Part shown: in pieces, positions 1 to 46,137 of the stretch
Numbering within the stretch: the stretch's first letter is position 1
How the letters are laid out: each line of letters opens with the position of its first letter
Source of the DNA: Calditrichota bacterium
Lineage (GTDB): Bacteria > Electryoneota > AABM5-125-24 > Hatepunaeales > Hatepunaeaceae
Direction: 5' to 3'
Assembly (NCBI GenBank): GCA_016867855.1
Contig: VGIO01000001.1
Coordinates: forward strand, 1 to 52,141
DNA: 52,141 nt
Translations under genes and position numbers: made by a program
Notes under the pieces: model-generated
The model's database searches: none
The model's input: only the letters and a program-made list of their open reading frames with translations
Told to the model about the DNA's origin: nothing

Positions 1-195
1 ATCGGCGCGGTTAGGGTTACTAATAAATAGACCAGCGGCGGCGCCCAATTACCGTCCAAAGCCCAGCCGAGGCTTATATTGGCGCGAACAGCGCGAATGT
101 AGGCGCGAAAAGTCAAAGTTGATTTATTAATGAAGAGAATACTGTGAACCAAGCGAACATATCAATCAGTCCGGCAATTCACGAATTTATAAAAC

Positions 196-1539
196 TTAAT
201 TTTCAGTCTGGCTGGTGAAATGAAAGTCGTTGACTTTCATCGCCGGGGTGACCGTGCCGCCGCCACCCCAAAAGGTCTCGGTCTTATATAACTGCCGTGA
301 TAAGGCTTCGACATTGTTTAAAATATGCAGCACAGATTCAGTGAAGCGCATATTTTTCAAACCTTTGGATATCCTGCCGTTTTCAATTAAGAACAAGCCG
401 TCGCGGGTCATTCCGGTGAGGGTAACCTTCATCGGGTCGAGGATGTTGCAATAATGCAGTCGGGTAACTAATACGCCCTTCCCTGTCGAAGATATCATCT
501 CATCGAGCGAAGACTCGCCGGGCGAGATGATGACATTTAAAGGTATAGGACCATTAGTATCCGGCTGGGGTAGAGCGTGTCCGGTCGAAGCGGCGCTGGC
601 TTTGGCGCCGGTATTTCGGTCGTGAACGACGCCTTTGAAAACGCCTTTTTCGATTAGCGGGACGGCGCGGCGCGGCATACCTTCATAGTCGAAGGGTATT
701 CCGGGCGTCAAGGGATGATAAGGGTCATCGACGATAGTGATGTTATCACCGAGGACTTTTTGTCCGATTTTACCGGTGAAAGGGCTGCGGCTTTCAACGA
801 AGGCTTTGCCGTTGAACGATTCCCAGATTAGAAATAGCATAAAATCAGCAACCGCGGCCGGTTCGAAGACGACCGTCCAGGCGCCGGGTTCGATGGAGGA
901 TGGATTGCGGCTGTCGAGCGCTTTCCGGGCGGCTGTTTGGGCGACGCGGCTGATGTCGATTTTCGCAATATCCGGGTCGGTGTCTTCGCACCAGCCGGAG
1001 GAGTCCTGGCTCATTGCGGAGATGGAGAAGGCGGCGTTAGTTTTACGGTGAAACGCCCAGAGGCCATTTGAATTGGCGATGGCAAAACCGTTGCCGCCGT
1101 TGGAAAATATACCGGCGCCCTCAAGTCCTTCTTTTTGAAAAAAATCGACGGCTTGGGCTATGCCGTCGGCACGCGCTTCAGGCGAGAATTCGACGGTCGC
1201 GTCGAAAAAGTTCGGTTTGGATTGGTAAGTTTGGGGCTCTATCAGCGGCAGCAAGTCCTTATCGACGGCGGAGACTTCTTGCGCGGCTTTGGCGGTCGCA
1301 ATGCAGCGCGCGATGCCGTCAGCGGTGAGATTGCCGGTGGAGGCTTTGCCCATTTTCCCGGCGCGCAGCAACCGCGCCGACATTCCGCCGCCGCCTTGCG
1401 AAACGTTTTGCGTGATACGGCTCTCGCCGAAGCGCGTCAACGCGCCTTCAGCAGATGAAAGCAGGATTTCCGTTTCATAACCGACGGCTAAATTCAACGC
1501 CTGGTCTGCCATAGCGCGTAGTTCGCTCTCAGTGAACAT
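196..1539 (-). CDS. pmbA: TldD/PmbA-family protein (PmbA/TldE-like)
   Basis: 447-aa ORF of family-typical size. Gly-rich C-terminal half (GMTRDGLFLIENG, GGGGTVTPAMKV). No HExxxH zinc site, so PmbA-like rather than TldD-like. No tldD partner in the window. Confidence 0.7.
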   Translation of the reverse strand: MFTESELRAMADQALNLAVGYETEILLSSAEGALTRFGESRITQNVSQGGGGMSARLLRAGKMGKASTGNLTADGIARCIATAKAAQEVSAVDKDLLPLIEPQTYQSKPNFFDATVEFSPEARADGIAQAVDFFQKEGLEGAGIFSNGGNGFAIANSNGLWAFHRKTNAAFSISAMSQDSSGWCEDTDPDIAKIDISRVAQTAARKALDSRNPSSIEPGAWTVVFEPAAVADFMLFLIWESFNGKAFVESRSPFTGKIGQKVLGDNITIVDDPYHPLTPGIPFDYEGMPRRAVPLIEKGVFKGVVHDRNTGAKASAASTGHALPQPDTNGPIPLNVIISPGESSLDEMISSTGKGVLVTRLHYCNILDPMKVTLTGMTRDGLFLIENGRISKGLKNMRFTESVLHILNNVEALSRQLYKTETFWGGGGTVTPAMKVNDFHFTSQTEN

Positions 1540-2948: not shown

Positions 2949-3848
2949 TCATCTATTGAACAACAATGCCGAACCGGCGACGGCGATGAGGGTGCCTGCG
3001 ATAGCGCGCAAGGTGACTTTTTCCTTATAGATAATTGCGACCCAAGGGACGATCATAATCGGGACCAGCCCCATCAAAGTCGCGGCGATGCCGGTTTCAG
3101 CGTAGCGCACCGAGACCAGCGACAGCCAGATGCCGATGAAAGGTCCGAATATCGAACCGGCCAGGGTTAGGGATATCCCTTTACGGTCGCCCAGCGAAGA
3201 TGCCATAATTTTATATTGACGGCTGATTAAAATAAATAACCACATCACGACCGCGCCGGAGATGATGCGCAGAAAGGTCGCGGCGAGCGGCGAGACGATA
3301 TTGTTCATACCGGCTTTTGCCAGGATTAATCCAACGGCTTGCCCTAAAGCCGCGACGACCCCCAAGGTCAAACCGAGCCAGGAAAATTTCTGATTCGCTT
3401 TTACGGTTGGATTGACGGTTCGTTCGAACACGACCCAAAATACGCCGACCGTGGTGATGATTATGCCCAACCAGGCTAATAAAGATAACTTTTCATCCAG
3501 CGCCCAGAGGGCAATCAAGGCTGTAAAGACCGGCGAAAAGGCGATAGTCAGAGTAGTTTTGCGTGGTCCAAACAGGACATAGGCATAGAACAGCGCGCTG
3601 TCGCCGACCGCCAGTCCGACGACGCCGGAGAGTATTAACCATAGCGGTTTGCCGCCCTGATACCAGAGACCCGGATTAGCGCCATAAGAGATTGAAGATA
3701 CTAAAAATAAGAGACCAGTTGCGATGGTCAGCCGCCAGACATTGACCGGCAGCGAGCCGATGCGCTGACCAGCGGATGTAAAAAAGATTGCCGTCCAGGA
3801 CCAGCAGAAGGCTGTGGCCAGCGCGGCAATTTCACCGAAATATGGCAT
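2949..3848 (-). CDS. EamA/DMT-family transporter
   Basis: 299-aa ORF, about ten hydrophobic helices, duplicated EamA-like halves. Confidence 0.75.
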   Translation of the reverse strand: MPYFGEIAALATAFCWSWTAIFFTSAGQRIGSLPVNVWRLTIATGLLFLVSSISYGANPGLWYQGGKPLWLILSGVVGLAVGDSALFYAYVLFGPRKTTLTIAFSPVFTALIALWALDEKLSLLAWLGIIITTVGVFWVVFERTVNPTVKANQKFSWLGLTLGVVAALGQAVGLILAKAGMNNIVSPLAATFLRIISGAVVMWLFILISRQYKIMASSLGDRKGISLTLAGSIFGPFIGIWLSLVSVRYAETGIAATLMGLVPIMIVPWVAIIYKEKVTLRAIAGTLIAVAGSALLFNR

Positions 3849-12018: not shown

Positions 12019-12271
12019 TGGGTTTTAGGCTTTGGCTTTAGATAATGATTAATACTAATTCAGTATTTATGGGTCGATTAGTGTTAGTCATTAAATAACT
12101 TATACTTAGGCTAAAATAAATGGTTTCTCGCCAAAGTCAAAAACCTAAAGCCCAAAGTCTACAGCCAAAAGCCAAAAATCAACAACCTGCGCTGAGCGAG
12201 GATTGTTAAGAAAGAAAATTCAGCAATGAATAATTAATCCACCCCCAATCAAATCGCAATGGGAGAAAACG

Positions 12272-38630: not shown

Positions 38631-39966
38631 TTATCTGATTATTACAACTTTTCTTATCGACGCTTTATCTTGCGTCGTCAATTTCATAAGGTAAATTCCC
38701 GCCGGGCGATCGCTGCCCTCAAATGTGATAGAGCGCTGGCCGAAGTGCATATTCTCACTCTCCATCGTTCGTATCAACCTCCCCTGCGCGTCGAATATCT
38801 GCAAACAGACACCTCCCGCCTTCTCAAGTTCAAACCTCACCGCTGTCGTTGAGTTGAACGGATTCGGCACAATCTCGAATTTGGAATTTGGAATTTGGAA
38901 TTTGGAATTTGGAATTATCCATCCAGTCGGGCGTCGAAACATTCACCGTCCATCTCTGGCTGTCGATAGCGGCGAACTCCCAATGCAGGCTGTCAATCTG
39001 CACTGAATCTGTAACGAACACGGTTAGGATATAATGTCCAAGATTGGGGAAGGAAGTTGTGAACTCGGCGGAATCATAAGCCAGTTCTTCGCTGTTTTCG
39101 GTCCAGCGGTAGAATTGACGCGAAGCCGGTCCGCGGTTAAACGGCGCGACGCCAAATGTAATCCTCCGGCCGGGTTGAAGTGAAATTATATCGTCAGTTG
39201 GCCAGTAGGCGCGGATAAGGCCGTGGACCGTTATCTCCCAAGTAATCGAATCTCGAGCGCCGTCCAGAACAGCCAAGCCTTCGACGGCATATCTACCGAC
39301 GCTTGAGAAGAATATCGAGGCGGTCGAATCCAGCCCGATTTCGGCGCGGCGGTTTTGGTCGATGCGGTCGATGAGCGTCCAAGTATAAGACGGGCGGCGC
39401 TGCCCATCGTTGACATAACCGATATGGAGCGCAAAATCGACCTGCGTATTGCGGCGGAGATTGAGAAACAGGTCCTCTGGTGTGTGCGAGCGGATGATAA
39501 AATCGTTGACCATCACATTCCAGCGCCGCACGGCTTCGTATTGGCCGTTAGATGCGCTGCACTGGACAATCTGCGCGCCCAATTCATCGAAAATAACTAA
39601 TTGCGTCGTATCATTGTCTAACCGCTCATCGTTGTAGAACCACTGGTGAGAAATATTCAGACCGCGCTGGTCGTTAGTTCGAACTTTGAATAAAATAGTA
39701 TCGTCCAACAACACGGTGAGCGTTGTATCCTCCGGCGACCAGGCGATGAACTGCGGAGCGGGCTGGAACTCGGCGAGCCTAACGAACATCGCGTCGGTTA
39801 GGTTTTGTTGATTTATCAATAAACTCGTGCCGACGGCTATTACTTTACCGGAGCGGGTTTGGATGACCGAGTTCAGTTCGCCAGGCCAATGCAAAGTGTC
39901 GCTGTCGAATTCATAATCGCGCCGTCCCCATAATAGTGTTCCATTATTTGCAAGGCAGACAGTCAT
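38631..39966 (-). pseudogene. T9SS-sorted surface protein (three Ig/PKD-like repeats plus a Por_Secre_tail C-terminal domain) interrupted by a frameshift inside a (CCAAATT)5 tract
   Basis: ORF 38830..39966 and ORF 38631..38942 both read NSKFQIPNSKFQ through the same repeat in different frames. The downstream frame continues VPNPFNSTTAVRFELE..GIYLMKL..KVVIIR, a typical T9SS sorting domain. Confidence 0.7.
38878..38912 (-). repeat. Heptanucleotide microsatellite, five units (AATTTGG on the plus strand, CCAAATT on the coding strand)
   Basis: Counted directly: 35 nt with period 7. Confidence 0.95.
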
Positions 39967-40892
39967 AGTCGAACCGTTGGCGTCTCCATTCCGCCGGGAC
40001 TATATCCCACGCCAATGACGCCCACTCCACGTAAAGTGGCGACCGACTTAACAAAGTTCATCGCGCTGCCGCGGTTGCCGGTCAAGTCGGAAATATACCG
40101 CACCCAAGCCGGCGTCCCGTCCTGGCGAACGCGATATATCCAACCGGTGGCGGTATTATTCACAATACAATGCACGCCGCCAAAGAAGAAGCCTCCTTCG
40201 CAGGAGACTAAACTATTGGCGTAATTATCGCCGGTGCCGCGGTATTCGTCTCTTGCCCAAATCCGGCGTCCGTCGAAATCGACCAGGGTTGTCCAATTCT
40301 TTCTGAAATAATCATAAGCGCCTAAAAGAAATAGACCATCTTCTGTCTCGCGCATCGCGTGAAAACAGACATAAAATTCATTTGCGAAGCCATAGCGAAA
40401 GGTATCGATGACTTCGCCGTCTTCGGTGGTAAAAACAAGCAAAGCGCCGAACCGGCGGTCCTCCGGGATAACGCCATGCCCGGCGAGGGCTAAAACACCG
40501 CTTTTCAATTCTATAACCGCATAGCAGCAACCGGGATAATAATCGTTTTGCCAGCGGATTTCGCCGGCCGGCGAGAGCCGCGCCGCGCTGAACCGGACAT
40601 GGCCAATATTCCCCGCGGCTATGATGTCGCCATCGTCGGTCTCGATGACGCTCTTAAAGCCGAAACTGTTATTTGGGAAAGTGCGCGTCCAGACAGTATC
40701 CCCTTCTTCATCGAGACGCAAAATCCACGGATGGCCGGCGCCGCAGCCGCAGACGACAGATCCCCCGTCGTCTAATACGAAGACATCATTGAAATAATCG
40801 TTCTCGCCGCCTTGGTCGTAGAAGCGCATCAGTTCGACGCGCGGTTGGGCGAAAAGCGGGACGCATATTAGAAGTGTCAGTAGATAACGCAT
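39963..40892 (-). CDS. Secreted repeat protein (signal peptide; beta-propeller-like DG..G..W repeats), ATGA-coupled to the downstream T9SS cargo gene
   Basis: 309 aa. MRYLLTLLICVPLFAQP signal; recurring ..DDGG/..DDGD..G... and ..G...W.. blocks. Confidence 0.55.
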   Translation of the reverse strand: MRYLLTLLICVPLFAQPRVELMRFYDQGGENDYFNDVFVLDDGGSVVCGCGAGHPWILRLDEEGDTVWTRTFPNNSFGFKSVIETDDGDIIAAGNIGHVRFSAARLSPAGEIRWQNDYYPGCCYAVIELKSGVLALAGHGVIPEDRRFGALLVFTTEDGEVIDTFRYGFANEFYVCFHAMRETEDGLFLLGAYDYFRKNWTTLVDFDGRRIWARDEYRGTGDNYANSLVSCEGGFFFGGVHCIVNNTATGWIYRVRQDGTPAWVRYISDLTGNRGSAMNFVKSVATLRGVGVIGVGYSPGGMETPTVRL

Positions 40893-45846: not shown

Positions 45847-46137
45847 GGTAAGACGGGCAGGGACGCCCGCTCTCCTAAATCTTAAAGCCCAAAGCCTAAA
45901 GCCTAAAGCCTAAAGCCTAAAGCCAATATGGCGGGCAGGGACGCCCGCTCTCCTAAATCTTAAAGCCCAAAGCCAAAGCCTAAAGCCTAAAGCCTAAAGC
46001 CTAAAGCCAAAAGCCCAAAGCCTAAAGCCAATATGGCGGGCAGGGACGCTCGCTCTCCTAAATCTTAAAGACCAAAGCCTAAAGCCTAAAGCCCAAAGCC
46101 TAAAGCCAATATGGCGGGCAGGGACGCCCGTCTTACC
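45847..46137. repeat. Nested satellite. Three units (78, 105, 78 bp) plus a truncated fourth head. Each unit is the head GGCGGGCAGGGACGCCCGCTCTCCTAAATCTTAAAG, then 5, 9 or 5 CCTAAAG-type heptamers, then CCAATAT. The array sits inside a split hairpin GGTAAGACGGGC-AGGGAC-GCCCGTCTTACC.
   Basis: Unit boundaries at 45852, 45930, 46035 and 46113, counted by hand. Confidence 0.9.

Follow-up and report, generated by a model that had tools for sequence, protein, structure and literature searches.

A junction heptanucleotide repeat and two frameshifts in a predicted type IX secretion cargo gene of Calditrichota: switch or recent pseudogene?

Introduction

When the sorting domain of a predicted surface protein lies out of frame with the rest of its gene, and the two frames meet inside a DNA repeat of non-triplet period, is the gene being switched or is it broken? 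The question is raised by a locus on the minus strand of a 52,141-nt stretch of a Calditrichota genome (contig VGIO01000001.1 of assembly GCA_016867855.1, positions 1 to 52,141), which as a whole is referred to here as the window. The locus comprises a body open reading frame (ORF) of 378 codons and a short tail ORF carrying the C-terminal sorting domain (CTD) of a type IX secretion system (T9SS) cargo protein, and the passage from one to the other lies within five CCAAATT heptamers. An earlier reading of this DNA, here called the original prediction, proposed that slipped-strand mispairing switches secretion of the protein ON and OFF, or else that the repeat had collapsed during assembly or is polymorphic in the population. 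Repeat-driven frameshifts in surface-protein genes are textbook knowledge in host-adapted pathogens; to our knowledge, there are hardly any records of them from free-living, uncultured phyla. The answer we favour, with a probability of about 0.6, is that a slippage gain in a conserved linker repeat, together with an independent frameshift upstream, has left a recently fixed pseudogene or a copy locked in the OFF state.

Results

The heptamer tract and the frames that meet in it

Re-reading of the ORFs and of the tract bears out the central observation of the original prediction: body and sorting domain are in different frames, which cross inside a perfect (CCAAATT)5 at 38878-38912 (the minus strand of 38860-38930 reads GGATAATT(CCAAATT)5CGAGATTGTGCCGAATCCGTTCAAC). 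Tandem Repeats Finder (TRF) reports a periodic stretch at 38877-38916 (period 7, 5.7 copies, 100% matches, score 80), and the expected number of occurrences of the three-unit pattern, from 100 dinucleotide-preserving shuffles of the window, is 0.00. Perfect simple sequence repeat (SSR) arrays with a unit of 4-9 nt and at least three copies number only three in the 52 kb, the other two being intergenic (CCTAAAG)4, and heptamers are the sole SSR class in the window. Heptanucleotides have been reported as the commonest of the longer SSR classes in bacteria (PMC4679880).

Comparison of coordinates modulo 3 places the sorting-domain frame at +1 relative to the body frame, which reaches its stop codon (38830-38832) 16 codons past the tract. 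When the tract is edited in silico, the two are fused at four units (442 aa) and at seven units (449 aa), and remain unfused at three, five (the state of the window), six and eight; loss of one unit or gain of two would thus join them, as had been predicted. That both frames encode the same peptide through the tract is true of NSKFQIPNSKF but fails from residue 12, where the body frame has Q and the tail frame E. The tail ORF matches PF18962 (Por_Secre_tail; E 8.8e-11, 42.4 bits against a cutoff of 27) and TIGR04183 (E 8.8e-11, 41.6 bits against a cutoff of 23), the matches spanning residues 24/25-101 of ORF 38631-38942. The body ORF encodes the last blade of a β-propeller (~65 aa), three PKD/immunoglobulin (Ig)-like domains, the tract and a 16-aa out-of-frame tail, IRDCAESVQLNDSGEV. 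The PKD assignment comes from homologues and a structure model, Pfam finding no PKD domain at E≤0.1 in the window's own body ORF; the earlier description of the body as Ig/PKD repeats stands for three domains, and the first ~65 residues of the ORF belong to the propeller instead.

The full extent of the gene and a second frameshift

A protein search with the repaired 442-aa query retrieves single-ORF homologues of 730-772 aa in Calditrichota metagenome-assembled genomes (MAGs). Three of these, P0002 (757 aa), P0003 (772 aa) and P0006 (761 aa), are colinear by tblastn with an upstream ORF of the window (ORF1), the body and the CTD, in frames 1, 3 and 1, respectively, and intact homologues cover 39987-38878 in the body frame. 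The signal peptide of ORF1, MRYLLTLLICVPLFAQP, shares an AQP motif conserved in the family, and the 378-aa ORF supplies, in its first ~65 codons, the last repeat of the N-terminal repeat domain (alignment A1). The AlphaFold model of P0002 has a mean predicted local distance difference test (pLDDT) score of 81, and its top Foldseek matches are β-propellers (CylK, and an archaeal S-layer protein with a YVTN propeller plus PKD) and Ig arrays. The family architecture is thus a signal peptide, a β-propeller, three PKD/Ig domains, a disordered linker and a type A sorting domain (Table 1). Colinearity indicates that ORF1, the 378-aa ORF and the sorting-domain ORF are pieces of one ancestral gene of ~760 codons, and that the locus belongs to a Calditrichota family of predicted T9SS-secreted proteins of about that length. 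The gene does not, then, consist of body and tail alone, as first supposed: the ORF at 39963-40892 belongs to it, and so does a second lesion, frameshift #1, bounded by the body-frame TAG at 40000-40002 and the ORF1 TGA at 39963-39965 and falling within the propeller, at positions matching residues 303-321 of P0002.

Signal peptide and sorting domain stand on one polypeptide in P0002, P0003 and P0006. In the window they are distributed over three ORFs in two frames, the signal peptide being on ORF1 alone, and the single-ORF homologues of ~760 aa reveal two frameshifts, more than one lesion. Because frameshift #1 cuts off ORF1, repair of the tract alone would yield a 442-aa protein with no signal peptide; the fusion foreseen by the original prediction is real in silico, but its product could not be T9SS cargo. 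A pair of genes coupled by an ATGA overlap was considered and is ruled out by the single-ORF homologues and by the end of ORF1 inside the propeller. Pfam and NCBIfam searches gave no matches for ORF1 or the body, and a search of the window against Rfam returned a tRNA only. The other genes of the window are long, intact ORFs, so the assembly is not generally error-ridden.

Table 1. Positions of the pieces of the gene in the window, and of the domains of the intact homologue P0002
Feature	Position	Strand	Evidence
ORF1, N-terminal piece, 309 aa, frame mod3=2; Sec-type signal peptide and most of β-propeller	39963..40892	-	homologue colinearity, AlphaFold (AF2) model, Foldseek
Frameshift #1 interval, non-repetitive DNA; equals 1-nt loss or 2-nt gain	39963..40002	-	frame and tblastn comparison
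Body ORF, 378 aa, codon starts mod 3 = 0	38830-39966	-	ORF list, tblastn, alignment A1, P0002 model
(CCAAATT)5 tract, site of frameshift #2 (+7 nt)	38878..38912	-	TRF, unit editing in silico, alignment A4
Tail ORF carrying the sorting domain, codon starts mod 3 = 2, stop codon 38631-38633	38631-38942	-	ORF list
T9SS type A C-terminal sorting domain (EIVPNPFN...VVIIR), frame mod3=2	38640..38870	-	PF18962 and TIGR04183
P0002 β-propeller	residues ~20-375		AlphaFold model
P0002 three Ig/PKD-like sandwiches	residues 382-658		AlphaFold model
P0002 linker, pLDDT<50 (tract peptide at 667-676)	residues 660-686		AlphaFold model
P0002 sorting domain	residues 686-757		AlphaFold model

State of the tract in the population

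Other assemblies of the same population were found by exact look-up of the RecA, ORF1 and body of the window. Three of them, obtained by JGI from three different samples (L001, L002 and L005), are at least 99.9% identical to the window and have five units each; L001 and L002 carry differing single-nucleotide polymorphisms (SNPs) relative to it. No heterogeneity of tract length is seen between the window, L001, L002 and L005, and no ON allele was found; likewise, the protein database searched holds no allele of 442 or 449 aa, the lengths of the ON state. In four Logan read sets (SRR7979709, SRR7989281, SRR16108674 and SRR7008372), contigs start (L003, L004, L007) or end (L022, L023) inside the tract. 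A graph with k = 31, which we take to be the value used by Logan, would break only at a periodicity of at least 38 nt and would traverse the 33-nt tract of a four-unit allele, so the breaks argue for at least five units in all four read sets. The split into ORFs of 309 and 378 aa is also found in L001, L002, L022 and L023.

The tract in relatives

A metagenome scan retrieved nine family members (L008-L016) in differing contexts (beside PEPCK, a SIS-domain gene, or asd/rhomboid), and the reading frame is intact across the junction in all nine. Inspection of related genomes, which the original prediction had put forward as a check, shows the repeat to be present there: as (CCAAATT)4 in L009, L010, L011, L013, L014 and L015, and as CTAAATT(CCAAATT)3 in L008 and L012. 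Coordinates of the (CCAAATT)4 tracts are 2483-2510 in L009, 3284-3311 in L010, 4049-4076 in L011, 4049-4076 in L013 and 3854-3881 in L015. Exactly four units are thus found in 8/8 relatives with the CCAAATT unit, and seven or one never. Aligned with seven homologues, L008, L009, L011, L013, L015 and L016 among them, the window is set apart by one clean 7-nt gap (DNA alignment A4). Because intact relatives with this unit have four, the five-unit allele most probably represents the gain of one. The homologues are all single-ORF, that of L015 being a shorter single-ORF form. OFF alleles were also sought among the database homologues: the four that lack a CTD (P0005, P0008, P0017 and P0027) all end mid-domain, none showing an out-of-frame tail past the tract, and NCBI marks three of them as 'partial'.

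The short form of L015 (P0004, L015:2917-4128) consists of the PKD domains, the tract and the CTD and lacks a propeller; no ORF of at least 120 aa is present in the preceding ~1 kb (1900-2917), and P0004 may be a truncated or rearranged copy.

The RecA of the window is 90% and 80% identical to that of named Calditrichota MAGs, assigning the organism to that phylum. The closest relative sharing the mutase-recA arrangement of the window (L024:2635-5308, FWPV01015799.1; RecA 90% identical) has an AT-rich spacer of 107 nt between these genes, with no T9SS gene, which suggests that the copy in the window is dispensable or lineage-specific; L025 and L026 have cinA-ligT-recA instead.

Conservation of the repeat as DNA

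Is the tract kept for the peptide that it encodes, or as DNA? Over the C-terminal ~250 residues, the DNA of L008-L012, L014 and L015 is 85-100% identical, and this group was therefore counted as one lineage; with the window and L013, independent lineages number three. Outside the tract, conserved residues share a codon between these lineages in 0.39-0.52 of cases, so that synonymous sites are essentially saturated. Inside it, codon identity is 9/9 to 10/10 in most lineage pairs, and 9/10 and 8/9 in the two pairs with L008, an excess with P of 4e-4 to 9e-3 per lineage pair when residue-specific rates are used. We considered whether this conservation is a mere by-product of recent gene conversion; that is true within the L008-L015 group, but the excess remains across the three lineages.

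A different signature of turnover is found in L016 (FWPV01138629.1, from another assembly), the junction of which reads AATTGTA AATTGCA AATTGTA AATTGTA AATTGCG and encodes ENCKLQIVNCKLRVVPNPFN. This repeat (274-312, 5.6 copies, 90% matches) has the position and length of the four-unit allele, and a change of CC to G(T/C) in every unit causes S>C, F>L and P>V substitutions across the three reading phases. Judged from these units, the pattern is one of concerted evolution of the DNA and not of parallel selection at the protein level. Conserved synonymous sites in three diverged lineages and the concerted units of L016 together indicate that the repeat turns over as DNA and is kept in the homologues beyond what protein coding requires. 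The tract appears to be an old junction repeat of constrained length, kept pure in one subfamily by unit turnover. Being long-lived and self-homogenizing, the repeat is a hot spot of recurrent mutation.

In L013, the tract-bearing gene is followed directly by a second paralogue in tandem (L013:4412-6742), which is 776 aa long, is ~31% identical and has a CTD; the junction of this paralogue consists of degenerate heptamers (TCTAAAC TCCAAAA CCCAAAA TTCAAAA) with the linker length unchanged. The family is also mosaic: N-terminal halves (~500 aa) are 25-45% identical, and the last ~150 codons of L009 and L010 are 100% identical. Together with the near-identity of the C-terminal ~250 residues described above, this points to a conserved PKD-linker-CTD module that has been shuffled, or spread by gene conversion, under variable propeller heads.

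Other heptamer repeats

An intergenic array at 45854-46130 consists of a GC-rich hairpin, GGCGGGCAGGGACGCCCGC, alternating with runs of CCTAAAG, CCCAAAG and CCAAAAG heptamers with a period of ~105 nt. Exact-pattern copies of the hairpin lie at 45930, 46035 and 46113 (n = 3), a variant lies near 45854, and the array has no Rfam match. Three tandem CCNAAAN units occur 19 times against 0.03 expected, and a degenerate version of the array is found at 12131-12188. L001 aligns across 45854-46130 without gaps. A link between these arrays and the CCAAATT tract was considered and is not supported, the unit of the tract falling outside CCNAAAN and the arrays being present in none of the 28 fetched loci save L001, which overlaps the array of the window.

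Heptamers also occur in coding DNA of other phyla. In L021, a Bacteroidales MAG, a 783-aa ORF has an in-frame (CAGTCGT)4.7 at 2972-3004, directly ahead of its T9SS sorting domain, and ~2 kb downstream (L021:4971-5065) (AAATTCC)4.6 and further heptamers (CCCGGAA and others) lie in frame in a 439-aa ORF; this hints that junction heptamers may recur in other phyla. In L017 (Bacteroidota, ~3070-3110) and L020 (Ignavibacteria, ~3020-3060), the sorting domains encode NLEFGISNLGFV and SLGFGISNLGFV, respectively, right after PNPFNP, and the DNA there consists of GGAATTT-like heptamers, which we equate with the reverse complement of the window's unit. Among GTDB species representatives, at least 590 stretches match [NH][SA]KFQIPN or W[TS][LF]IDR[LIE]D[DQ], sorting-domain relatives being five among the matches listed. 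(CCAAATT)n-like coding may be widespread in other contexts.

Discussion

How did the gene come to be in its present state? The scenario that we favour starts from a four-unit ancestor, in frame, with a linker reading NSKFQIPNSKF. Slipped-strand mispairing would have added one unit (4 to 5 units, +7 nt), moving the sorting domain to the +1 frame and making the body terminate shortly past the tract. A separate, ordinary frameshift at 39963-40002 would have severed the signal peptide and most of the propeller. Both lesions then presumably became fixed in the population, giving a recent pseudogene or an OFF-locked copy. That both are present in the consensus of every assembly that could be reached argues for this outcome over a gene that is toggling, and the three pieces, with no further stops, and the still pure tract suggest that the inactivation was recent. 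Contingency loci combine a non-triplet SSR inside an ORF, a change of unit number that restores the frame, polymorphism of length and a gene that is otherwise intact. The tract provides the SSR and, in silico, the restoration of frame. The polymorphism is not seen, with five units in all same-population assemblies and four in eight relatives, at the level of consensus sequences, and the gene is not otherwise intact, owing to frameshift #1.

Several points limit the case for a fixed pseudogene. The unit counts come from consensus contigs, in which minority alleles of four or seven units among the reads could go unseen. Three of the four strain-level SNPs in the gene are nonsynonymous (G132S, at a glycine invariant in the family, F173S and H328Y), against none of three in the flanking mutase gene and recA; this is a hint of relaxed constraint, but with 7 SNPs in all it does not reach significance. 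The very features that make the inactivation look recent also mean that the copy is at most recently inactivated, and that it could still revert at the tract. Finally, conservation at the DNA level and concerted evolution are the pattern expected of a selected contingency tract.

The last of these points also bears on the idea of an active contingency locus. In that reading, the gene toggles reversibly and at high frequency, its product either carrying the CTD, and thereby secreted and anchored, or lacking it, and five units were the majority phase at the time of sampling. The unit is not a multiple of three, the gene encodes a surface protein and four or seven units restore the frame; the tract is pure at synonymous sites across three saturated lineages, and the concerted units of L016 imply repeated gain and loss of units, each single step of which is a frameshift. 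There is precedent for heptanucleotide switches in coding regions in neuO (PMC13001214) and in hmw1A and the HI1369 homologue of H. influenzae (PMC2651432). However, frameshift #1 lies in non-repeat DNA, and reversion of the tract would produce a protein that lacks a signal peptide. Five units are found in every same-population assembly, two of them on differing SNP backgrounds, and the other tract-bearing genes are ON in 8/8 cases with exactly four units, whereas neuO tracts range from 3 to 53 units and are OFF in 66% of genomes (PMC13001214). If ON and OFF were equally fit, with one third of unit counts in frame, at least eight of nine copies ON would have P ~1e-3, a binomial estimate that treats as independent copies that are only partly so. 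Four to five units are, moreover, short for a fast-switching heptamer tract. We therefore consider active toggling of this copy unlikely. What survives of the original prediction is a contingency-type repeat change, by one unit and in a tract conserved among relatives, in the gene of a secreted or surface protein; switching of secretion, with no ON allele, no heterogeneity between assemblies, relatives always at four units and a second frameshift, is unsupported.

An error of assembly or sequencing, in which the true tract has four (or seven) units and the fifth was mis-assembled, is hardly credible. Short tandem repeats are prone to mis-assembly, and the Logan contigs do break at the tract. 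Yet the periodic stretch is just 40 nt long and fits inside one short read, the three JGI assemblies are independent and agree on five units, the Logan breaks fall on both sides of the tract, as a periodicity of at least 38 nt would produce, and the second frameshift, in non-repeat DNA, is reproduced in L001, L002, L022 and L023. For a tract of 35-40 nt with these properties, the earlier suggestion of a collapsed repeat does not hold. Nearly as improbable is that the split arrangement is itself functional, the pieces being separate useful proteins made by translational coupling at the ATGA shared by ORF1 and body, or body and CTD being joined by +1 recoding in the tract. The overlap, the absence of further stops in the pieces and the frame common to ORF1 and CTD would suit this idea; on the other hand, ORF1 stops before the last blade, so that the propeller fold cannot close, the body as a separate protein would have no signal peptide, inspection of 39963-40002 and of the tract reveals neither a slippery site nor any known signal for +1 recoding, and every homologue is a single ORF (shorter in L015).

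In the intact members of the family, the tract may act as a contingency switch that uncouples the cargo from its secretion and anchoring signal. A bolder version, that the junction tract is a selected, family-wide contingency switch of Calditrichota T9SS surface proteins, in which slippage detaches the secretion/anchoring signal rather than abolishing the protein, and that the window's copy was caught by it and then locked OFF, strikes us as speculative and rather doubtful. Under such a family-wide switch, the purity of the repeat and its concerted evolution across saturated lineages would be the footprint of switching.

Comparison within the family provides a clean natural case in which a heptamer repeat has persisted, homogenized as DNA, exactly at the boundary between cargo and T9SS sorting domain. 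One member of the family appears to have been knocked out by the gain of a single unit; the result would be an ordinary recent pseudogene, with an unusually well resolved cause. There is also a caution here for annotation: the three adjacent ORFs are a single broken gene. If heterogeneity at the level of reads held true at the intact paralogues, contingency loci would extend to Calditrichota and to lake plankton, and would have a new use, the switching of localization instead of expression. A search of the literature returned no paper combining type IX secretion with SSR phase variation.

How does the locus compare with known systems? Its sorting domain scores above the cutoffs for type A T9SS cargo (TIGR04183/PF18962), and the ancestral gene had both a signal peptide and a C-terminal domain, as such cargo does; the allele of the window differs in that the sorting domain is out of frame with any ORF bearing a signal peptide. 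The closest parallel for the tract is neuO, the O-acetyltransferase gene of E. coli K1 on prophage CUS-3, which is phase variable through the heptanucleotide 5'-AAGACTC-3': there too a 7-nt unit lies in an ORF, one third of the counts are in frame, strand slippage is the mechanism and the repeat encodes a heptad peptide (PMC13001214). In contrast, the neuO tract is at the 5' end and governs translation of the whole enzyme, whereas that of the window lies in a 3' linker and uncouples the secretion/anchoring domain only. Unit numbers of neuO differ from genome to genome, and measurements exist of mixed populations; in the present case, four units are found in intact relatives with the CCAAATT unit and five in the population of the window, with no heterogeneity observed.

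The intragenic heptamers of H. influenzae, (AATTTTG)14 in hmw1A and (AACAACC)8-13 in the HI1369 homologue, are also in genes for surface or outer-membrane proteins, are frameshifted in some strains, and were proposed to be phase variable from genome comparison alone (PMC2651432). They are much longer, and vary in number between strains of a host-adapted pathogen; the bacterium studied here is a free-living lake member of the Calditrichota, and the count is invariant save in the broken copy. Genome-wide heptamer arrays, such as TAACTGA of Beggiatoaceae, Cyanobacteria and Bacteroidetes and the cyanobacterial short tandemly repeated repetitive (STRR) sequences, resemble the intergenic arrays of the window at 45854-46130 and 12131-12188, but are mostly intergenic, have been proposed to be regulatory and have other unit sequences. 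The opa genes of Neisseria carry a CTCTT pentamer in the region coding for the signal peptide; most copies are OFF at any time, and their switching has been measured. Like them, the family described here is a multigene family of surface proteins, the mosaic C-terminal module of which is similar in kind to the recombination between opa members, each with a frame-setting repeat in its coding region; unlike in opa, where the repeat is N-terminal and the copies mostly OFF, eight of nine copies are ON. The mechanism is thus that of the classical SSR frameshift, and what sets this case apart is the 3' linker position, the short and invariant tract and the host, an uncultured Calditrichota bacterium from lake water.

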